A stretch of DNA of 64,000 nt from a virus (IMGVR_UViG_2757320370_000005), one strand, 5' to 3'; shown: positions 22,480-33,046, counted from the first letter of the stretch. A program made the numbers and translations. Notes: generated from the letters alone by a model not told the origin.

Positions 22480-22613
22480 ATGATTATCACCTCAGGTATA
22501 TCTTTCCGCATATTAAAGACAATCATACAAACATTGTAAAAATTCGTAGTAAAATTTTCCTATCTCTGGTAGACTTGCTTTGTAAATTATTATCATTTTT
22601 AGGGGGAAGAAGA

Positions 22614-23219
22614 TTGAAAAAGCCGATTTATAAGAAATGGTGGTTTTGGATTGTATTAATCATTGTTATCGCTGCTATTGGTAATATGGGTGATGACACA
22701 GAATCAACTGCTTCTGTCGAACCAGTTGCAACCAAGCAAGCTCAAGCTGCAATTGCTGAAAAGACCGACGCTCCCACTGCAACTCCAACTGCTGAGGAAC
22801 TAAAGGCAATTGAAGAAGAAACAAAGAAAAAAGCGGAAGCAGATAAAAAGGCTAAGGAAGAAGCAGAAGCTAAAGATAAAGCTGCAGCTGAAGCTAAGGC
22901 AAAAGAGGATAGTGTCCCTAGAGAACATAAATCAGCATTAAAAAAAGCGGAAATGTATGCAGAAGCTATGAATATGTCAAAGACAGGCATTTACGATCAG
23001 TTGACTTCTGAATATGGAGAGAATTTTCCACCAGAAGCCGCTCAATATGCCATCGATAACATTGTATTTGATTGGAAAGAAAATGCATTAAAAAAGGCAC
23101 AATCATATGCAGAAGATATGAGTATGTCAGATTCGGCTGTTTACGATCAATTGATTTCAGAATACGGGGAAAAATTCACTGCGGAAGAAGCGCAATATGC
23201 GATAGATAATTTAGAATAA
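22614..23219 (+). CDS. ltp: Ltp-family surface protein, putative superinfection exclusion
   Basis: N-terminal KKWWFW TM anchor, A/K/E linker, two ALKKAxxY...YDQL.SEYGE.F..E.AQYAIDN repeats; no lipobox Cys seen. Confidence 0.88.
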   Translation: MKKPIYKKWWFWIVLIIVIAAIGNMGDDTESTASVEPVATKQAQAAIAEKTDAPTATPTAEELKAIEEETKKKAEADKKAKEEAEAKDKAAAEAKAKEDSVPREHKSALKKAEMYAEAMNMSKTGIYDQLTSEYGENFPPEAAQYAIDNIVFDWKENALKKAQSYAEDMSMSDSAVYDQLISEYGEKFTAEEAQYAIDNLE

Positions 23220-23230
23220 GATAAGTAACA

Positions 23231-23272
23231 AAAAAATCCCTACCAGCCACAAAGGCCAGAAGGGATTTTTTT
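23231..23272. terminator. Bidirectional intrinsic terminator
   Basis: A7-TCCC...GGGA-T7. Confidence 0.7.
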
Positions 23273-24239: not shown

Positions 24240-24602
24240 ATGATGAACGTAAAAATTAACGGCACTGACAAAACTGCAACTCTGAGCATGTTCAATGATA
24301 ATACTGGAGTAGATTCTGTTGTAGACTTCGTTGGAAACTATGATGCTTTGGCCGATGGGAAGTTCGTTTACGACGATGAAACCGGTACATACAGTACCGA
24401 TCAAGATACCTTCGACTGGTGGGACAAAGTCATTACCGATAACAAGTTGCTCGAAGAACGCATTGCTGATTTGAAGGTCAAACACGATCCAGAAGCCGTT
24501 GACGAGGTTGTGCACGCCTCTGCTGATGTTGACTTAGAAGACATGGCGGCAGCCGTGAACAAGGCTCTGGACGAAGGATTCGAGGGTTCAGAGGGAAAGT
24601 AA
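24240..24602 (+). CDS. Small highly acidic protein; anti-CRISPR/anti-defence candidate
   Basis: About 24% D/E; first gene of an operon; ends G GGA AAG TAA. Confidence 0.75.
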   Translation: MMNVKINGTDKTATLSMFNDNTGVDSVVDFVGNYDALADGKFVYDDETGTYSTDQDTFDWWDKVITDNKLLEERIADLKVKHDPEAVDEVVHASADVDLEDMAAAVNKALDEGFEGSEGK

Positions 24603-24778
24603 CACCGCTCCTCGAATACGTAGATGTTCCCTGGGTGGCTAACCACCTGGAGAAGTCGCGCCGCAATGTAGATATTGCGGCAAAGCGAGCGCTGAATCCG
24701 AAATATCGCGGGTCATTCCTGCGCCCGGATGCAGTGGTCGAGGGGCGGCCCCTTTGGTTAAAGGATCGCTGGCTGTGA
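24599..24778 (+). CDS. Start-less 59-codon HTH-like ORF in the -1 frame of the acidic gene; not in the ORF track
   Basis: VTPLLEYVDVPWVANHLEKSRRNVDIAAKR...FLRPDAVVEGRPLW resembles AlpA/excisionase-type HTH; its TGA overlaps the next GTG start. Confidence 0.6.
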   Translation, partial: VTPLLEYVDVPWVANHLEKSRRNVDIAAKRALNPKYRGSFLRPDAVVEGRPLWLKDRWL

Positions 24779-25449
24779 ATAAGACGAGGAAACCCAGGAA
24801 GCTTAAATATACCAATCAACAAATACTGGACGCGATTCGTCACCAGTATCGCTTGCACGAAGATTGTTTAACATCTGATCAGTATAAGGATTCACGCCAA
24901 TTGCCTAATCTATCAACCGCTATTAAGCGGTTCGGATCTGTTAAGGCCGTATGGAAGGCAGCTGGCCTTAAAGTCCCTAAGAAAAAAACAAACTATGCAA
25001 GTAAACGGTATGTGAATTTCAAAACGATTTCTATAGAGGAATTGTTGGAGTTTTTACGCCATTCTCTTCTAACCATCGGGTATATCCCGTTGGCATTGGA
25101 TTACTCCAAGATGAAACAAAAACCACCACTCGCGGCCTTATCTAACCGGGGTCTGACATGGAGACAATCAGTGGAAAAGGCTGGATTCAGTTTCGATAAA
25201 TCCCGAGAGGCGGGAAAGCTAATCCCCTTGGATGAAGGATTTGCTAATTCCAGAAAATATCGTGACCGGGCAAGAAAGCAAAAACTTCGTGCAGAGCTTG
25301 TGCGTTTAGGGCGTTGCCCTCAATGCCGGAAGCCATGGGAAGAACCAAAACCAAATGGAAGAGGAAAAAAACCGGATCATTGTCGCCAATGTCAGATTTA
25401 TTACAAAGAAAGATATGAGGACAGACGGAGGAATGTAGATGAAAGCTAA
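24775..25449 (+). CDS. Protein with two HNH-associated repeats and a C-terminal zinc ribbon; no nuclease domain
   Basis: YTNQQILDAIR...PNLSTAIKRFGS...AAGL, second copy, CPQC...CRQC. Confidence 0.75.
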   Translation: MNKTRKPRKLKYTNQQILDAIRHQYRLHEDCLTSDQYKDSRQLPNLSTAIKRFGSVKAVWKAAGLKVPKKKTNYASKRYVNFKTISIEELLEFLRHSLLTIGYIPLALDYSKMKQKPPLAALSNRGLTWRQSVEKAGFSFDKSREAGKLIPLDEGFANSRKYRDRARKQKLRAELVRLGRCPQCRKPWEEPKPNGRGKKPDHCRQCQIYYKERYEDRRRNVDES

Positions 25450-25945
25450 TCATAGGTTATGCCCCATCTGCAACAACCCGTTGGGCCGTAACAAGAACTG
25501 TTGCTCCATGGCCTGCTATGCAGTGCATAAGTCTAATTTCAAACCCTGTGTAATTTGCCATAAGTCATTTCAAGCCCCGCCCAGCAGCTTAGCAGTCACC
25601 TGTAGCACGACGTGTTCCAAAGAGCACAGGCGGCGTTTGGCCGCAGACGGTGTTAACTCGGCTGCATTAGAAAAGGCTCACGCTGCCCAGCCCAGCAATC
25701 CGCTGACCGGACGGTTTGAGACGCATGTCAACGCTAAAGACTGGGTAATCCTCTCTCCAGATGGCACAGAGCACCGCTGCCGCAATCTAATGCTGTGGCT
25801 GCGGGAACACGCCGATCTGCTAGATGGGACCGTCATACAGGCATTTGACGGGTTTGCGAAGATGAAACAGACTGCGCTTGGAAAAAGGCCCAAAAACAAA
25901 AGCTATCAGTGGAGGGGTTGGAGGCTTAAAGATTGGGGCGATTAA
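25439..25945 (+). CDS. Cys-rich zinc-ribbon protein with homing-endonuclease-like DNA-binding C-terminus
   Basis: CPIC, CCSMAC, CVIC, CSTTC; ends YQWRGW; no HNH or GIY-YIG motif. Confidence 0.7.
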   Translation: MKANHRLCPICNNPLGRNKNCCSMACYAVHKSNFKPCVICHKSFQAPPSSLAVTCSTTCSKEHRRRLAADGVNSAALEKAHAAQPSNPLTGRFETHVNAKDWVILSPDGTEHRCRNLMLWLREHADLLDGTVIQAFDGFAKMKQTALGKRPKNKSYQWRGWRLKDWGD

Positions 25946-25977
25946 CCGTCGCAGCATTAACAGTCCGGATAACACAA

Positions 25978-26015
25978 ACACCCCGTTAACCTTGATTGGT
26001 TGGCGGGGTGTTATT
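25978..26015. terminator. Bidirectional terminator
   Basis: ACACCCCG...CGGGGTGT followed by TATTTT. Confidence 0.7.
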
Positions 26016-26020
26016 TTATG

Positions 26021-27376
26021 CTAAATGATCCGCGCTGCCTCGGACACAATCCTATTTACATTTGTCTCCTGAGGATAAAATATATACTTCCCTTGATCAA
26101 TCGCGTATGCCTTAGCCTCCCACATAGCCGCGTGAGAGATAAATCTAGTAAGCACGGCGATAACGTCAGCTTGGTCAAGGCTGGCATAAAAGTCAGGGTC
26201 TAGCTTGTCAGCGTTATGGGTGAGTATGCGGCAAGGGTAATCGCCTGAACTCCTCCGCCGGTTACCGCCAATGATGGCTAGAGTCTTGCCTGCCAGCTTG
26301 GAGAGATCATCTACAGTGTCACCTAGCTCAATTGCTTCTCTCAGCTCCGGCGGCTCTCCGGCATCCGCCGGCTTCTCATCTGGCCGGAGTTGTCGCAGCT
26401 CGCCCATCAACTCTCCGATAAAGCTTTTCAATTCCCGGATGCGCCGCTGGTCTTCTTGGCTCCTTGCTTCGGACGGCTGGTTCTGCTGCTCTAACCCCCT
26501 GATCCTCTCATTGGCTGCCCCTAGCTTATCCCGCAACCCGGCTAACTCATGCTTTTGCTTCTCGGACTCTCGCATAAGGGCTGTGGACTGTACGGATTTT
26601 TTTTGAATATCCTCTGTGAGTTGACCGATCCACCGTAGTAAGAAGGCATTATCCCCCTTCTCACGCCGGAACAACTGGCCGATATATTTTGTCCGTTGAT
26701 CCTCCAGTGCTGGAGCGATGGGGAAATACATAATGGCAAAGCGCGTCCGCGCAGCTCCATACATTTTGGCGTAGAGGTCCGGTGTCCACCCCATAGCCCC
26801 AATATATAAGATTTCTTCCTGGATAAAATACACGTTCGCCGCACGCCAAAAGGACGAACGCTCGGCTTCAGTTACAACCTTTGCAGCCACCTCCCGCCGA
26901 GCTTGCTGCTCTGTTTTCCAGCTTGCTGTAAGTCCGATGGCTGCTGCGCCAGTCTCAATTTCAGAACGAAGCAGCTCCCCGACAGCAGCGCGCCAGTCTT
27001 CCAGCGCATACTCCACATAGGCTCCCCAAAAGGCACGCTCCTGGTCCTGATAAATCTCATAGCGGCGCTTATGGCCCTCCTGCATTAACTCCCCTATCTC
27101 TGGATCAATCGCCCCGCCGTAGTCGATGTTAACCTGCAATATATCCTTGCGAGAGTCTTGATCGCGGTAAATAAAACGCTCTGGAGGATACGCCGTGCTG
27201 CATTTAGTGCATTGGATAGGTCTTACTTGGTGGTTAGTATCATCCATTGCATCCTCCAGCTTACGATACAGCATACGCCCGTAATCATGGATCATGACCT
27301 CGGCATAATGGTTGCATTTGGTGCAGCGACCTACTGAGTAGACCTTAACGTGTACAGGTTTGTCCATAAAGTCCAT
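26021..27376 (-). CDS. Zinc-ribbon + coiled-coil + DUF2325-like domain protein
   Basis: CTKC...CTKC; C-terminal LAGKTLAIIGG...ADVIAVLTRFISH. Confidence 0.75.
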   Translation of the reverse strand: MDFMDKPVHVKVYSVGRCTKCNHYAEVMIHDYGRMLYRKLEDAMDDTNHQVRPIQCTKCSTAYPPERFIYRDQDSRKDILQVNIDYGGAIDPEIGELMQEGHKRRYEIYQDQERAFWGAYVEYALEDWRAAVGELLRSEIETGAAAIGLTASWKTEQQARREVAAKVVTEAERSSFWRAANVYFIQEEILYIGAMGWTPDLYAKMYGAARTRFAIMYFPIAPALEDQRTKYIGQLFRREKGDNAFLLRWIGQLTEDIQKKSVQSTALMRESEKQKHELAGLRDKLGAANERIRGLEQQNQPSEARSQEDQRRIRELKSFIGELMGELRQLRPDEKPADAGEPPELREAIELGDTVDDLSKLAGKTLAIIGGNRRRSSGDYPCRILTHNADKLDPDFYASLDQADVIAVLTRFISHAAMWEAKAYAIDQGKYIFYPQETNVNRIVSEAARII

Positions 27377-27379
27377 GAG

Positions 27380-27589
27380 TTACTGATCCTCCTGTTTTTT
27401 GCGTCGTACTACCTCAGACAACTCTAAATCGTATACCTCGCATATTCGGTCCAGCACCTCCAAGGACACATAACCGTCTTTCCACAGCTTTGACGCCGTG
27501 GTTGGGGATATGCCGACCTTTGCTATAAAATCCATCTTTTTAATTGTGCGCTTTACTAGCATTATACGCAGCGGTTCATACGTTATCAT
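27380..27589 (-). CDS. Cro/C1-type HTH regulator (HTH_26-like)
   Basis: ITYEPL...VGISPTTASKL...VSLEVLDRIC. Confidence 0.88.
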   Translation of the reverse strand: MITYEPLRIMLVKRTIKKMDFIAKVGISPTTASKLWKDGYVSLEVLDRICEVYDLELSEVVRRKKQEDQ

Positions 27590-27611
27590 TTACTTTCCAC
27601 CTCCACAGCTA

Positions 27612-27728
27612 AAACTATACACGTAACTAGATATAGTTTCAACATCACGGAATTATTTTCGCAAACCTATTGACTTAACTTCCGTGAAGGTGTAATATAA
27701 TAAACAAGAAGACGGAATAATATCCGTC
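27612..27728. promoter_or_regulatory. Divergent promoter region with three inverted repeats
   Basis: TTGACT(27670)-17-TAATAT; TCACGGAA/TTCCGTGA (27645, 27680); GACGGA-N6-TCCGTC (27711-27728); AAACTATA/TATAGTTT. Confidence 0.7.
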
Positions 27729-27751
27729 AAAACGAAAATGGAGGAATTAAA

Positions 27752-28156
27752 ATGAACATCACTCAAATGTACGAAATGGTTAAAGGTATCTACGCTGCAA
27801 ACGAAGACAAGTATGTTGCGATTGGCCTTCGCTTCGAAGACAAGGAACGCGAGATCGGCGAGGTTTGCGAGTACAGCAAACACAATGCCGACCGCGACGA
27901 TGAGCGTGATTTTCCTGAGTTCGGCTCCGAGGATTACGAGGACATGTTCGAACTGGACGGCACATCCGCGTGGGACATGAGCGTTGACTCCACGTACCGG
28001 ATCGAGCGGTGGCAAGACCCCGAAAAGGATTGCTCATTACATTTCGAGCCTCTCTACTGTTACGTAATCGCTGGCAACACCACTCGCACCCATTCAGACG
28101 CCGACCCAGGCGAGGTTGTAATCAAGGATGCTATTGTTATTGCACAAATCTTCTAA
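27752..28156 (+). CDS. Small highly acidic protein; anti-defence candidate
   Basis: About a quarter D/E; GGAGG RBS; strong promoter. Confidence 0.8.
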   Translation: MNITQMYEMVKGIYAANEDKYVAIGLRFEDKEREIGEVCEYSKHNADRDDERDFPEFGSEDYEDMFELDGTSAWDMSVDSTYRIERWQDPEKDCSLHFEPLYCYVIAGNTTRTHSDADPGEVVIKDAIVIAQIF

Positions 28157-28233
28157 TCGACAAGGGCCGCTACAGCCCCTCTATATACACGCCGCAGACA
28201 CACTAAGGTGTCGGGTATGAAGGAGAACTACTC

Positions 28234-29061
28234 ATGACAACTGAAACAATTATTCGAGTACCATTAGGATATAGCGCAAACGACTTGGCCATCGATCATC
28301 CTTGCGGAACAGAAATTCCATCTAATGGAGTTTCTGGACTGCAAAGCAAACCAGCAACTGTAGACGGAATTGATGGCCGTGATATGAGCGTTGTGACTAT
28401 AAGTGGCGTTTTGGTGTATTACGCCGAAATGTCAGGATACTCAAGGAATCACGGTTTAAGCACCATATATTACGGGTGCAGACCAAGTCAGCCATACATC
28501 GAATTGGATAGTTTTCACAATTCAAATAACTCAAGATATACATTCTTTGTTCCGGATAGTTTTCGAGTCGAAAGCCTAAGAGTTGTTCAAGATGATTATA
28601 GTAGGAGCAAAATCGCTAAAAATTTAATACTTTACCCTAAAAGAGTTGAGGGGTTGAGGGATTTTTTTAAACAAGGTAGTAATTATCCAACTATTGACAA
28701 GTACAATGCAATGTTGAGCTTGTATAAGGAGGCAGGTTTAACACAACATCACTCTTATCGGGTGATGTTAGAGGGTAGAAACGAATTAATCGATAAATAT
28801 GTTTATGGTCACGGTTTCTGCGTGACTGTCGGATATACTAAATGGCACCATATTGTTCAGCCGGACGGATCTGTCCTCTATGGTAAGGACGAGTTTCACA
28901 GGGAAACAGATAAAAAAATATCTGCTTCAGTAAAGGATTTTCACGAGATGATCTTAAAAGAGTCTTCCTATCCTTCGAGTTCTAGCGCTGAGTCAGAGCG
29001 CGGGCGTAGTCTCAAGCGAATACAGTATTTAATTGAGACGTATGCTTCAGACAGATTTTAG
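28234..29061 (+). CDS. Hypothetical protein (275 aa)
   Basis: AAGGAG RBS; no recognisable motif. Confidence 0.75.
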   Translation: MTTETIIRVPLGYSANDLAIDHPCGTEIPSNGVSGLQSKPATVDGIDGRDMSVVTISGVLVYYAEMSGYSRNHGLSTIYYGCRPSQPYIELDSFHNSNNSRYTFFVPDSFRVESLRVVQDDYSRSKIAKNLILYPKRVEGLRDFFKQGSNYPTIDKYNAMLSLYKEAGLTQHHSYRVMLEGRNELIDKYVYGHGFCVTVGYTKWHHIVQPDGSVLYGKDEFHRETDKKISASVKDFHEMILKESSYPSSSSAESERGRSLKRIQYLIETYASDRF

Positions 29062-29064
29062 GCA

Positions 29065-29180
29065 ATAAAAAGCCCACCGCCAGCATAATGCTAAGCGGTG
29101 GGCTTTGGTGTGTGTATCTGTTGCAATCCACACTCCTGCAAGAGGAGCGAATGCGCGTCCAGTGCTTCCGATCCGCGCAA
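29065..29180 (-). ncRNA. Small RNA with a solitary type I-C CRISPR-repeat-like unit (candidate Racr/crRNA-like RNA)
   Basis: Own promoter, 5' hairpin, repeat-like 32-mer, 13-nt linker and intrinsic terminator (29068-29106). Confidence 0.75.
29120..29151 (-). CRISPR. Solitary repeat unit TTCGCTCCTCTTGCAGGAGTGTGGATTGCAAC (not an array)
   Basis: 32 nt; 7-bp stem and 5-nt loop ending at nt 21, then an 11-nt TGGATTGCAAC tail; matches the recalled I-C pattern GTCGC...GCGTGGATTGAAAY. Confidence 0.8.
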
Positions 29181-29184
29181 GACC

Positions 29185-29213
29185 ATACTATCATCTTTGG
29201 GATGATATGTAAA
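29185..29213 (-). promoter_or_regulatory. SigA promoter of the sRNA with an operator-like palindrome in the spacer
   Basis: TTTACA-17-TAGTAT with extended TG; TATCATC-N5-GATGATA at 29189-29207. Confidence 0.75.
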
Positions 29214-29321
29214 TAAAAAGGATCATTCGCAATTAATTAAGATTGACGGTTCTTTTTATACCCAGGACTTACCTATCACACGTCACCACTCAAAAGATTA
29301 TAATTATTGAGAGGTGAAATT

Positions 29322-30185
29322 ATGTTTATATCCCCTATGCTGCTGCAAACGGCCCCCAGGCCATTTAGTCACAGTGATTATATATATGAGCCCAAGGTTG
29401 ATGGCCACCGACTAATCTATTCCCAACAATCCGGCGGAGTCCGACTCTATACCCGCCACAATAACGAGTGCACCCTGCAGTACCCGGAACTGCAGCTTCC
29501 CTTTGCCGACGACATTATCCTGGACGGCGAAGTCGCCTGTGTCGACCCGTCCACCGGTGTATCAGATTTTGAATCTGTAATGAGCCGGTTCCAGACGCGC
29601 CGGGATGATAAGATTCAGCAGCTCACAGCCTCCTTGCCAGCCTATTACGCCATATTTGATATCTTGATGTATAAAGGCCAGGACATGCGCGGGTTGCCAC
29701 TCCTGCGCCGCAAGGAGATCCTAGCAGGCTTGTCGCTGCCATCCAGTAGTTTTGGAGTGGTGCCGCACGTGGACGGCGCTGGGGAGGCGCTATTTAAACA
29801 AATCGAGGATCGTGGAATGGAGGGTGTTGTCGGCAAACGTAAGAACAGCATTTATGAAACTGGCCGCCGCTCCGTTGCCTGGCAGAAGGTAATCAACTGG
29901 ACCTATGCTGATGTGTTTATCACAGGCTATCGTAAGCAGGAATTTGGATGGTTGGCTGCTGTACCATCCGGTACGTCCGGCAGGCTTCGCCCTGCTGGGA
30001 TCATTGAGTTTGGAGCTTCACCACACCATAAGAAGGCATTTCACGGTGTGGTCCAGCAGCTTGTGAAAGGCGAGGATAAGGAGTTTGTGCACCTGGAGCC
30101 CAGGCTGCGGGCAAAGGTGCGAATGAGGAACTGGACCAAATCCGGCATGCTGCGGAGCCCAGTGTTTACGGAGTTTATCATATAA
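29322..30185 (+). CDS. ATP-dependent DNA ligase (LigD-like ligase core)
   Basis: EPKVDG adenylation motif, ILDGEV, FDIL, EGVVGKR. Confidence 0.92.
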   Translation: MFISPMLLQTAPRPFSHSDYIYEPKVDGHRLIYSQQSGGVRLYTRHNNECTLQYPELQLPFADDIILDGEVACVDPSTGVSDFESVMSRFQTRRDDKIQQLTASLPAYYAIFDILMYKGQDMRGLPLLRRKEILAGLSLPSSSFGVVPHVDGAGEALFKQIEDRGMEGVVGKRKNSIYETGRRSVAWQKVINWTYADVFITGYRKQEFGWLAAVPSGTSGRLRPAGIIEFGASPHHKKAFHGVVQQLVKGEDKEFVHLEPRLRAKVRMRNWTKSGMLRSPVFTEFII

Positions 30186-30265: not shown

Positions 30266-30703
30266 TCAATCACTTGTATCACCTGATAATTTCCGCACAA
30301 GTATTCCGAATTCTTTGCTCTTATTATAATCAAACCCAGCCAATTCTACAGCTTCGCTCCAGGATATTCCGAGTTTGTAGATAGTAGTTACGTGAGGTGA
30401 TAACTCTGCCTTTTTATACTCGGTCGTTGTTAGCAATTTCCCGGCAGATAAGAAGTGTTTACGCAGGGCATTTGCGATTTGATCGATGTCCATTTCTCTC
30501 CCGTTAGGCCGTCTATACTCAACGCCCGCCGCGAGACATGCTGCTTGAAATGAATGGTATCTTTTTAAAATGGTCATGTATGATGGTTTAAGTTTACTCT
30601 CTTTGTACTGTTCAACAGAAAGTGAGCCATCATACATTTCGGACGCTGCAAGCAATGCTTCAGAAATATTCCCATCTGTATACTCCCTTCCTTTCTTCTT
30701 CAT
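30266..30703 (-). CDS. Protein of two HNH-associated repeats only
   Basis: YTDGNISEAL...PSYMTILKRYHSFQAACLAAGV plus a second copy. Confidence 0.75.
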   Translation of the reverse strand: MKKKGREYTDGNISEALLAASEMYDGSLSVEQYKESKLKPSYMTILKRYHSFQAACLAAGVEYRRPNGREMDIDQIANALRKHFLSAGKLLTTTEYKKAELSPHVTTIYKLGISWSEAVELAGFDYNKSKEFGILVRKLSGDTSD

Positions 30704-31263: not shown

Positions 31264-31482
31264 TTATTTTATGTATGCTCTAAATTCAAACCGTTCCCGT
31301 ACAAAATGGGGACCGGCTATCTTGATGGAGTCTGGAGTATATCCCTCCACGATCCCTCCGTCATCCATCAGGTGACCTTCAGGGTCTGGTTCTTCCCGGT
31401 ACCATACCGACACCTTAGATTGAGTCAGGGCTGCCATCAGGAAGTCTGTATCACTCTCTAGGACTTTGTATGTAGTGCTCAT
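31264..31482 (-). CDS. Hypothetical protein
   Basis: ATGA overlap with the RES gene. Confidence 0.65.
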   Translation of the reverse strand: MSTTYKVLESDTDFLMAALTQSKVSVWYREEPDPEGHLMDDGGIVEGYTPDSIKIAGPHFVRERFEFRAYIK

Positions 31483-32222
31483 CTGTTTTTCATTCCAATA
31501 GATCGACCTTTTTTTTGATCTTCAAGGCGATGTATTGATTTATCAAGCTTATAGTTGAGCAAGTCCCCATTAAAAATAACGATATTAAACTGATTCGAAT
31601 TTTTTGAACAGGTATACTTTACCCCATCTAATTTCATATAATCACGTATGTATTGAGCGATAGCTTGAGTCGGCATATATTCAACCAAAGATCGTTCTGA
31701 AGAAACGGGCCTTGAAAAGTTCAAATCAATTATTTTTCTAAAGCTATTAATTTTTGCGTCCTCATTTTCCCCATGAACTAAGTTCAATAACTTAAGCATT
31801 CTTTTTGGTCTGCACTCAACTATTGTAACTGGAGCAAAAATGGAAGCGTTCAGTTCCAAAAGAGCTGTAGAAATTGAATCTGCCGCATAAAGAAAAGAGA
31901 CCCCTTTTGGATTTAACCTCCCTACTCCAGCCTTTCTATGAGGTGGCGCCTTAACCTCTGCTAGCTTCCTAAAAAGCCTTCCTTTTCTACCTCTATAAAA
32001 AATTTCATCAGGATAAATCTTCTCGACCCCAATACTTCTTATAAAATTAAAGATGTTCTCTTGAGAGTTAATCTCCAACTTATTAGTCAGTTTAAACCCA
32101 TCCGCAAATTTGTCATACTCATCTTGTGCATATTTGTTATTGGAAATGAGAATTGATGCCCCTAAAGATTCTTCGCCAATTTGACCTCCATACTGCTTAC
32201 CCTTATAAAGAATCATACTCAT
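31479..32222 (-). CDS. RES-domain protein (putative NAD+-consuming toxin/defence effector)
   Basis: FYRGR, APP...GRLNPKGVSFLY.A...ALLE, YMPTQAIAQYI...DGVKY; AT-rich. Confidence 0.85.
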   Translation of the reverse strand: MSMILYKGKQYGGQIGEESLGASILISNNKYAQDEYDKFADGFKLTNKLEINSQENIFNFIRSIGVEKIYPDEIFYRGRKGRLFRKLAEVKAPPHRKAGVGRLNPKGVSFLYAADSISTALLELNASIFAPVTIVECRPKRMLKLLNLVHGENEDAKINSFRKIIDLNFSRPVSSERSLVEYMPTQAIAQYIRDYMKLDGVKYTCSKNSNQFNIVIFNGDLLNYKLDKSIHRLEDQKKGRSIGMKNR

Positions 32223-32506: not shown

Positions 32507-33046
32507 TTGAAAAAAGCAATCATAGGGCTAGTCGCTGGCATGCTGATCGGATCAGCGGGAATGGCAGCAGCTGCGACAACTCAAACCGTCCAGGCTGTAT
32601 TCGCTAAATTCACACTTTCTGTGGATGGCCAGAAGCAAACGCTGAAGAATGACCCGCTTGTCTATAGAGGCACGACATACTTGCCAGTCCGTGAGGTGGC
32701 CGAAATGACCGGCTACGGACTGGAGTATGACAACACGAAAAAATCCATTGATTTGAAGACGAAAGGAGATGAAGTTTCTGTGGGAATTACTGACGAAATC
32801 AATTTAAATGAATTTATTTCAACCAAGGTTTTGGTGGCAGACTATGATGTAGACGTTTCGGCTGAATCCGGAAAAATTAGAGATGTGACTTACAAAAAAA
32901 ATGACAACATCATTGTTTACTCGATGCCAGGCACTTTAGTAGATGGTATTTATAACAGTGTTGATGGATTGCATAAAGCTGCGGTTAAAGATGGGGCAAT
33001 ATACCTGTCGAAAGAAGCAGTATCTTTTTTGGGTATATCTATTTAA
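32507..33046 (+). CDS. Exported protein with copper-amine-oxidase N-terminal-like (stalk) domain
   Basis: Signal peptide; PLVYRGTTYLPVREVAEMTGYGLEYD. Confidence 0.8.
   Translation: MKKAIIGLVAGMLIGSAGMAAAATTQTVQAVFAKFTLSVDGQKQTLKNDPLVYRGTTYLPVREVAEMTGYGLEYDNTKKSIDLKTKGDEVSVGITDEINLNEFISTKVLVADYDVDVSAESGKIRDVTYKKNDNIIVYSMPGTLVDGIYNSVDGLHKAAVKDGAIYLSKEAVSFLGISI

Follow-up and report, generated by a model that had tools for sequence, protein, structure and literature searches.

Solitary repeats that sit on mobile elements, away from any CRISPR array, have been published as RNA anti-CRISPRs (Racrs), and a type I-C example is among them. These repeats cluster with anti-CRISPR (acr) genes, and an excess of predicted acr genes is found up to 1 kb from Racr candidates (PMC10651486). 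Here we examined the viral sequence IMGVR_UViG_2757320370_000005, a stretch of 64,000 nucleotides (nt) hereafter called the window, and focused on the interval between positions 24,240 and 29,213, where a solitary type I-C-like repeat RNA gene lies in the same island as two small acidic protein genes, A and F. We consider it moderately probable that this interval is an accessory island in which the repeat RNA acts as an RNA anti-CRISPR and in which F and A are candidate anti-defence proteins. In addition, A is predicted to be decoded in two ways through a −1 ribosomal frameshift at GGGAAAG, which is known as the slippery site of lambda G/GT (PMC3296357).

The window corresponds to G000:C1:3458854-3522853, within a complete host genome (G000) of 8.54 Mb in a single contig. 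The phage is a temperate one of Paenibacillus, and the 24.2-29.2 kb interval forms part of its variable accessory (‘moron’) island, with the lysogeny module on one side and the tail genes on the other. Relatives of the genes examined were found in Paenibacillus and Brevibacillus. Taken as a whole, the interval is a conserved, modular accessory island.

Results

A solitary type I-C-like repeat with its own transcription signals

The solitary repeat, or solitary repeat unit (SRU), occupies positions 29120-29151 on the minus strand and consists of 32 nt that form a 7-pair stem and a 5-nt loop and include a GTGGATTGCAAC handle. Upstream of it lies a promoter-like site (29185-29213, minus strand) composed of TTTACA, a 17-nt spacer and a TG-extended TAGTAT. 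Downstream, at a distance of ~15 nt, an intrinsic terminator (29063-29108, minus strand) is formed by a 13-pair GC-rich stem and then TTTTTATT; on the plus strand the same terminator also ends the neighbouring gene G. Folding of the region 29055-29180 on the minus strand gave a z of −4.5. These signals would delimit a minus-strand small-RNA gene of ~115 nt that runs from the promoter (29213 to 29185) through the repeat (29151 to 29120) to the terminator (29108 to 29063). An earlier note on this DNA, drawn from the sequence by itself, had described an open reading frame (ORF) without known family at 28234-29061 followed by a solitary repeat, and this is the arrangement that we found.

We then compared the repeat with those of the host and of a relative. 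It is present as a single copy outside the six arrays of the 8.54 Mb genome, and this copy is located inside the prophage. Its sequence resembles the orphan I-C repeats of the host and is closer still to the I-C repeat of G008, a genome of the same genus, with which it shares 27 of 32 positions and an identical stem. G008 has an intact I-C locus (cas3-cas5-cas8c-cas7-cas4-cas1-cas2) with a 44-repeat array; its cas genes were assigned by gene order and size, and Pfam confirmed Cas3, Cas5d, Csd1 and Cas7. Covariation analysis of the stem across relatives showed that 86.8% of the cells were paired and that five of the seven pairs were compensatory, a result that none of 500 shuffles reached. Thus, the stem sequences vary yet pair, and the 3′ handle of the repeats is nearly invariant.

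Two attributes by which Racrs and SRUs are recognised, namely a lone repeat on a mobile element, outside arrays, and mimicry of the repeat of a subtype present in the host range, are found at this locus. As far as the sequence allows us to judge, the repeat RNA is very probably a Racr-type gene, and the RNA half of the anti-CRISPR function proposed for this island is well supported. The RNA would mimic the type I-C repeat used in the genus and, by analogy with RacrIC1, may load Cas5c/Cas7 into non-functional complexes.

Solitary repeats recur in islands with A or F homologues

Gene A (24240-24602, plus strand) encodes in the zero frame a protein of 120 amino acids (aa) with 24.2% aspartate or glutamate (D/E) residues and an isoelectric point (pI) of 4.05. 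Gene F (27752-28156, plus strand) encodes a protein of 134 aa with 23.9% D/E residues and a pI of 4.26. By D/E content, both rank at about the 99th percentile of the window ORFs with at least 80 aa, in agreement with the earlier note, which had singled them out as small proteins with about a quarter of acidic residues.

Type I-C-like repeats were sought in all the loci (L numbers) that we fetched around A and F homologues, with flanks of 4-6 kb per homologue. A strict descriptor of the repeat matched five times in 0.87 Mb of A/F loci, compared to a single match, that of the window, in 17.1 Mb of two-strand host sequence outside arrays. Under a looser reading, at least 11 distinct islands with an A or F homologue also carry a solitary I-C repeat RNA gene. 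The islands with F are the window, phage Halcyone together with the related proviruses L019/L020, L005/L006, L021, L024, L026, L040 and L052; those with A are L053, L075 and L077. Repeat and F are closest in L026 (74 nt), followed by L021 and L052 (~0.5-0.6 kb) and the window (~1 kb); elsewhere they are 1.8-3 kb apart. The repeat is encoded on the strand opposite to A or F in every such island except L075. On the 5′ side of each of the nine solitary repeats that we inspected lies a promoter-like site, 5-35 nt away, and an intrinsic terminator comes 15-35 nt after the repeat. Homologues of A and F occur together in two further contigs (L018/L058 and L028/L061), and one A homologue is placed directly downstream of an Aca2_YdiL gene. 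Six contig names had no match in the portion of the published SRU table that was available for comparison.

These loci bear on the question of whether the solitary repeat is an inhibitor at all. CRISPR-like regulatory RNAs (crlRNAs) have been reported in phages (bioRxiv 10.1101/2024.10.29.618823), so the repeat could be a crlRNA that steers Cas complexes to repress a host promoter, with the ~15 nt between repeat and terminator serving as a short guide, or it could be an inert remnant of an array. However, the terminator comes directly after the repeat, with no second degenerate repeat, the stem covaries and the handle is conserved. A remnant is, moreover, hard to reconcile with a dedicated promoter and terminator at nine loci that have very different flanks. 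We consider both of these explanations improbable.

Two further features of these loci were recorded. A GC-rich 5′ leader hairpin (GCGCGG...CGCGC) occupies the interval between promoter and repeat in the window (29154-29180, minus strand) and in L053 (upstream of 3687, minus strand) and was seen at none of the other loci. Genes of the Phage_Gp111 family (PF07410) are frequent in A/F islands (L004, L028, L034, L038-L041, L045, L051 and the Logan contig ez4V7MpF).

Gene A is predicted to be decoded in two ways

The predicted two-isoform decoding of A is the most unexpected result of this analysis. The 3′ end of the gene reads GAG GGA AAG TAA, which places a slippery heptamer, G_GGA_AAG (24593-24599, plus strand), in the X_XXY_YYZ register directly 5′ of the TAA stop codon; an open −1 frame spans 24533-24778. 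Normal termination would produce the 120-aa acidic protein, and a −1 shift at the heptamer would produce a trans-frame protein of 179 aa, A-wHTH (24240-24778), made of the 120 aa of A and 59 aa read in the −1 frame (24599-24775, with the stop codon at 24776-24778). The added segment would be a basic tail that resembles a winged helix-turn-helix (wHTH) of Xis/MerR type. The 150-nt gap between A and the next gene, B, was also considered as a non-coding RNA, given its structured look, and this candidate was rejected, as the gap codes in the −1 frame.

In the earlier note, A had been tied to a helix-turn-helix (HTH) gene located downstream of it. That gene, B (24754-25449, plus strand), encodes instead a basic protein of 231 aa with an N-terminal HNH_repeat (PF18780, E=8e-6) and a C-terminal zinc (Zn) ribbon, and it matched no HTH family in any library scanned. 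What stands of the proposed link is the HTH-like domain in the −1 frame at 24599-24775, behind the slippery heptamer.

Comparison with homologues supported the predicted shift. In L018:2144-2695, an in-frame fusion of 183 aa, the first 116 residues align with A, and the tail is 46% identical to the translation of the window in the −1 frame at 24608-24769. The tail is also fused in frame after A in the homologue P0063 and before A in P0053. In four other loci (L053, L073, L074 and L075, the latter from Paenibacillus sp. HGH0039) G_GGA_AAG is found at the stop codon in the same register, followed by an open −1 frame with a related tail, and L080 (Paenibacillus sp. 598K) has the variant G_GGA_AAC in register. 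The relatives with a frameshift site are 35-62% identical in A (62% in L053, 44% in L074 and ~35% in L073) and carry two subtypes of the wHTH tail; that of L074 gives an HTH_17 match (E=6e-4) that falls short of the Pfam cut-off. The codons around the heptamer are not the same in the window and in L053, and the heptamer itself is retained.

Of 115 short A-family representatives, 13 end in ...GK. E or A stands before this ending in 12 of the 13, and both residues have codons with a final G, which the heptamer requires. The DNA was read for three distant members with this ending: two have the heptamer, and L072 has neither the heptamer nor a −1 ORF. By itself, the GK ending is only suggestive. 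Also suggestive, as possible stimulators of the frameshift, are hairpins ~30 nt downstream of the heptamer (z −1.7 in the window and −2.9 in L053) and Shine-Dalgarno-like motifs, GAGGG/GGAG, 5-6 nt upstream.

The existence of in-frame fusions in L018 and P0063 could also mean that A and the wHTH segment are a broken gene, in which a mutation or a sequencing error has interrupted a former fusion and no programmed shift takes place. Against this, the heptamer is placed at the stop codon in the same register, with an intact −1 ORF, in six independent and divergent loci whose flanking codons vary, and E or A precedes GK in nearly all members with that ending. A broken gene is therefore very improbable. 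The locus shows what is expected of programmed −1 frameshifting, that is, an in-register heptamer, an open −1 frame with a conserved domain, conservation in divergent homologues and in-frame fusions, and these signals argue that A is decoded both as the 120-aa protein and, after a −1 shift, as A-wHTH. Our literature searches turned up no earlier description of a frameshift in the A family.

An exhaustive HMMER search (E≤1e-3) showed that the A family comprises 348 clusters at 50% identity. Most members have ~115 aa, and among the matches listed 32 of 150 have 150 aa or more; a Pfam scan of the extensions of long members found no domain. The AlphaFold2 model of A, with a predicted local distance difference test (pLDDT) score of 94.7, consists of a small N-terminal beta domain and a three-helix bundle, and searches with this model (Foldseek against PDB and a wide structure search) returned generic helical matches only. 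A distant member (31% identity, E=1e-7) is encoded at OR148981.1 2422-2811 (L003), in an inovirus from human saliva, beside Zot and secretin-like genes, and the family therefore extends past the tailed phages. The wHTH-like segment was also found without A, in L026:4826-5014 and L028:3088-3261, directly upstream of genes of the recurrent neighbour family ‘c1’ (Zn-ribbon/HTH_17/AP2) and in a different frame.

Gene F encodes a conserved, possibly enzymatic protein

The F family comprises 47 clusters that are 39-64% identical, and its named sources are Paenibacillus, Brevibacillus and the P. larvae phages Halcyone (where F is gp29), Heath and Scottie. F is always located in the accessory region of a prophage, near lysis or lysogeny genes, and its neighbours vary widely. 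The alignment contains 20 invariant columns, among them R27 in the first strand, S72 in the GTSAW strand and E121 at the start of a strand, as well as a conserved acidic loop at residues 30-70. This degree of conservation makes F look more like an enzyme than like a fast-evolving binder.

We next searched for proteins of similar fold. The AlphaFold2 model of F has a pLDDT of 92.4 and gave no Foldseek match at E≤1e-3 against PDB and BFVD. The best Z in wide and follow-up fold searches with F was 4.7, and no match to either A or F exceeded Z 5.6. The weak matches of F were enriched in ADP-ribosyltransferase (ART) folds, which made up about one third of the top 50 rows, all with Z<5. They included Arr, with Z 4.5 (root-mean-square deviation 3.9 Å, 89 residues aligned) and Z 4.0, and also PARPs, scabin, pertussis toxin, exotoxin A and CARDS toxin. 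The match to AcrIF11 (6KYF) was weak (Z 2.2), and the ESM Atlas was uninformative for F. From these model comparisons, an ADP-ribosyltransferase-like fold of F is a lead only.

A divergent control region separates F from an HTH operon

Upstream of F, on the opposite strand, gene E (27380-27589, minus strand) encodes a 69-aa HTH protein of Cro/C1 type (HTH_26, E=2.8e-12). E is the first gene of a two-gene operon, and gene D (26021-27376, minus strand) follows it after 4 nt on the same strand. The link between F and a divergent HTH gene proposed beforehand was correct, with the amendment that E shares its operon with a DUF2325 protein. In the 451-aa protein D, an N-terminal CxxC pair precedes a coiled coil, and DUF2325 (PF10087, E=4.6e-6, below the cut-off) forms the C-terminal part. 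The neighbours of D in the ESM Atlas were DUF2325 clusters from phages and Bacillota and were otherwise uninformative, and a search against PDB sequences returned nothing meaningful.

The 162 nt between E and F (27590-27751) contain two promoters, P_F (plus strand; TTGACT at 27670-27675, 17 nt, TAATAT at 27693-27698) and P_E (27642 to 27614, minus strand). As had been noted from inspection of the sequence, several ACGGA inverted repeats accompany the promoter: the spacer holds four ACGGA/TCCGT words when 0.35 would be expected (P = 4.6e-4), and these form two operator-like repeats. In the first, CACGGAA (27647-27653) pairs with TTCCGTG (27681-27687) and both bracket the −35 box; the second is the palindrome GACGGAATAATATCCGTC (27711-27728), at the start site of P_F. 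The near-consensus promoter would drive F, and E, co-transcribed with D, probably binds its palindromic operators. The same layout, with D and the HTH gene divergent from F, is found in L040 and L041, where each locus has its own inverted repeats around a GTGTTGAC promoter, and in L018 D and an HTH_26 gene lie near F.

The three-gene synteny of L040 and L041, conserved in part in L018, raises the possibility that E and D, with or without F, form a prophage defence or toxin-antitoxin-like module, consisting of an HTH regulator, a DUF2325 effector and an acidic partner, that protects the lysogen and so does the opposite of counter-defence. D has a Zn ribbon, a coiled coil and a Rossmann-like DUF architecture, and the island has other genes of benefit to a lysogen, an Ltp-like exclusion lipoprotein and a RES-domain protein. 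On the other hand, PADLOC returned only a spurious coiled-coil match, most F homologues are found without D, and F has a strong promoter of its own, divergent from the E-D operon. We give little credence to such a module.

Evaluation of the proposed anti-defence role of A and F

We rate F and A as candidate anti-defence proteins because they are the recurring protein neighbours of these repeat RNAs. By such guilt by association, an anti-CRISPR (Acr) role of A and F is plausible: F would possibly be an enzymatic modifier and A, possibly, an inhibitor whose long isoform autoregulates the operon. In outline, the picture drawn in the earlier note of acidic ORFs and HTH genes beside a Racr is correct. 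The combined protein and RNA anti-CRISPR locus that it put forward is well supported in its RNA half; for the protein half, the support comes from associated genes, namely solitary repeats at ~0.1-3 kb from F and one A homologue directly behind an Aca2-family gene.

Several observations weigh against this reading. In the libraries searched (Pfam, PHROG, PADLOC, NCBIfam and PDB sequences), A, F and G matched no family and showed no similarity to a characterised Acr or anti-defence protein and no homology to any named Acr or anti-CRISPR-associated (Aca) family; no named Acr had been recognised from the sequence at the outset either. For an Acr, F is unusually well conserved, and it is rare in the genus (3 of 116 genomes). 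The conservation of F and the frameshift-encoded DNA-binding tail of A are what might be expected of an enzyme and a regulator, at least as much as of classical stoichiometric Acrs, and the DNA-binding-like proteins that are the constant partners of A fit a regulatory role. The gene order also departs from that of canonical acr-aca operons, since the HTH gene paired with F points away from it and shares an operon with D, and the gene that follows A is an HNH_repeat/Zn-ribbon gene. Only about a quarter of the sampled A/F islands hold a solitary repeat, and the association of the repeat with A and F may be a reflection of a shared insertion hot spot. Finally, models for Cas1, Cas3_HD, Cas5d, Cas7 and Csd1 found no match anywhere in the complete genome G000; since the host has no cas genes, the island does not act against CRISPR in its present lysogen.

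This last point was examined at the level of the host genome. G000 carries six CRISPR arrays with type I-C-like repeats and ~60 spacers (G000:C1 145254-158854 and 6544037-6544921). The genome contains no masked bases, cas3_core gave generic helicase matches only, and, as a positive control, the same Pfam models detected all the interference genes in the relative G008. Because the models find nothing in G000 yet work on G008, the arrays of G000 are orphans. The genes around them (L007-L009) are unrelated and include an IS110-family transposase, a Fic protein and a tet(M)-like ribosomal protection gene. Any benefit of the island would arise in other hosts that the phage infects; of 115 species of the genus, 42 have Cas8c. 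Co-occurrence of F and Cas8c across the genus was tried as a test and abandoned as powerless, given the few genomes that have F.

One spacer of the host (array position 149717) matches at 36 of 36 positions the portal gene of a second prophage (G000:C1 7601055-7601090; L010:9056-9091), with a 5′-TTC motif immediately upstream of the target. This self-target is presumably tolerated because interference is absent in G000, and it may even hint at the reason for the loss of cas genes. Self-targeting as a sign of an active Acr was rejected, since the missing cas genes account for the only perfect self-target, which is in another prophage. No credible match inside the window was found with the 60 host spacers and 43 spacers of G008.

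It is possible, although we hold it to be unlikely, that the repeat RNA is the only anti-CRISPR of the island. In that case A would act, in its two isoforms A and A-wHTH, as a DNA-binding regulator, or as a factor of the recombination-directionality type, that works with B and its neighbour C; F would be a small enzyme, perhaps an ADP-ribosyltransferase, with a host target unrelated to CRISPR; and the co-location of these genes would reflect a common accessory hot spot by the lysis and lysogeny modules. In IS3-family elements, OrfA and OrfAB arise by programmed −1 frameshifting, and the short isoform of A might titrate the long one as in that pair. The tail of A is of the Xis/MerR HTH_17 type. 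L026 and L028 also have it as a free-standing segment, without A, directly ahead of ‘c1’ Zn-ribbon genes; in the window, L018, L053 and L073, the gene that comes after A is c1-like or encodes a Zn ribbon; and the C-terminus of B is 46% identical to a member of the c1 family. These neighbours and the free-standing tail make a regulatory role of A a strong rival. The invariant columns of F, its varying neighbours and a host without cas genes point in the same direction. However, solitary repeats lie within 1 kb of F in several independent islands, an Aca2-family gene precedes one A homologue, and about 80% of the A family, among the matches listed, has no DNA-binding tail. That predicted acr genes are over-represented up to 1 kb from Racr candidates (PMC10651486) also speaks for anti-defence proteins in this position. 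On balance, we retain the interpretation of the interval as an island with an RNA anti-CRISPR and with F and A as candidate anti-defence proteins.

A more far-reaching version of this interpretation can be formulated, which we regard as speculative and rather unlikely. A would be a self-regulating anti-defence protein, most likely an anti-CRISPR, that produces its own Aca-like autorepressor by the −1 shift, which would fix the ratio between inhibitor and repressor. F would be a new, minimal ART-like enzymatic Acr acting on the I-C Cascade or Cas3. Together with the repeat RNA, they would make up a three-layer island with an RNA decoy, a stoichiometric protein and an enzyme.

Neighbouring genes

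Gene C (25439-25945, plus strand), which follows B, encodes a cysteine-rich, treble-clef-like protein of 168 aa that matches phrog_1271, the non-catalytic part of an HNH endonuclease family (E=4e-10), and weakly VATC. A terminator-like hairpin with a 15-pair stem and a T-run (25977-26012, plus strand), placed between the convergent genes C and D, closes the A-B-C unit. A second HNH_repeat protein is encoded at 30266-30703 (minus strand); it has 145 aa, is 29% identical to B and contains no nuclease domain, and repeat-only HNH_repeat proteins seem common in the island.

Gene G (28234-29061, plus strand), located between F and the repeat RNA gene, encodes 275 aa and had no family match in Pfam, PHROGs, PADLOC, NCBIfam or PDB sequences. 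A search among 5.8 billion proteins returned only G itself. Its one partial relative is found in the F island L023 (32% identity over 85 aa).

The part of the window between 19 and 35 kb looks like the lysogeny and accessory part of the prophage. It contains a ParB-like gene, an S24/cI-like repressor, several Xre-type HTH genes, a LytTR gene, an Ltp-like lipoprotein gene, a LexA_DNA_bind-YolD operon, an ATP-dependent DNA ligase and a RES-domain protein, and a tail protein begins at 33043. The Ltp-type surface lipoprotein (22575-23219, plus strand; PF07553, two repeats) is likely a superinfection-exclusion gene, and a 149-nt tandem duplication (22935-23083 and 23085-23233, 72% identical) was detected at this gene. 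The ligase gene (29307-30185, plus strand; NF005796, E=7e-109) comes directly past the repeat RNA gene, and its homologue in L018 (L018:1-861) also adjoins the F homologue of that locus, in divergent orientation. The RES-domain protein (31479-32222, minus strand; PF08808, E=5e-14) is followed by a family-less ORF of 72 aa (31264-31482, minus strand), and both may form a prophage toxin-antitoxin-like pair with an atypical partner.

Discussion

Racrs are a recent discovery. To them, the loci described here add a coherent group of type I-C Racr-like RNA genes from Paenibacillaceae phages, among them the sequenced P. larvae phage Halcyone; these genes are stand-alone, each with its own promoter and terminator. 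Through them, two conserved and uncharacterised families, A (348 clusters) and F (47 clusters), stand out as anti-defence candidates. The predicted recoding of A is missed by routine annotation. If A were an Acr, the frameshift would represent a new means by which an inhibitor is coupled to its repressor; otherwise, A would still be a clean new case of recoding among phage regulatory genes.

Among the closest described systems is RacrIC1 (Camara-Wilpert et al. 2023, PMC10651486). In common with it, the window RNA is a single-repeat mimic of I-C sequence and structure in a prophage, beside small uncharacterised genes and without an array. The two differ in that RacrIC1 is bicistronic with acrIC5, whereas a promoter and a terminator of its own flank the window RNA, which converges with the protein genes beside it. 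The window RNA is, in addition, predicted from sequence, and its present host has lost the cas genes.

With regard to F, the comparison is with AcrIF11 (PDB 6KYF; bioRxiv 10.1101/2024.08.26.609590), which is likewise a phage protein of ~130-150 aa with conserved residues of catalytic type. F has no sequence similarity to AcrIF11, and its invariant R, S and E suggest an ART clade other than that of the H-F-H-D of AcrIF11. AcrIF11 acts in type I-F, whereas the target type of F would be I-C.

The predicted recoding of A has a precedent in lambda G/GT, which uses the same heptamer, GGGAAAG (PMC3296357), and, as A would, yields two products with a shared N-terminus at a set ratio. Compared with lambda G/GT and with the IS3 elements, A belongs to another gene family and context, its shift site abuts the stop codon, and a small acidic protein would gain a DNA-binding domain by the shift. 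The hairpins that might stimulate shifting in A, ~30 nt downstream, are also farther away than is usual.

Lastly, the island can be set beside Acr-Aca operons and fusions, such as AcrIIA1 or Aca2-linked loci. It shares with them small acidic first genes, strong promoters, links to HTH proteins and palindromic operators, and one A homologue is found behind Aca2_YdiL. It departs from them in that the HTH gene of F is divergent and forms an operon with a DUF2325 protein, and in that the HTH of A is appended by the predicted frameshift or fused in frame, in place of a separate downstream aca gene.

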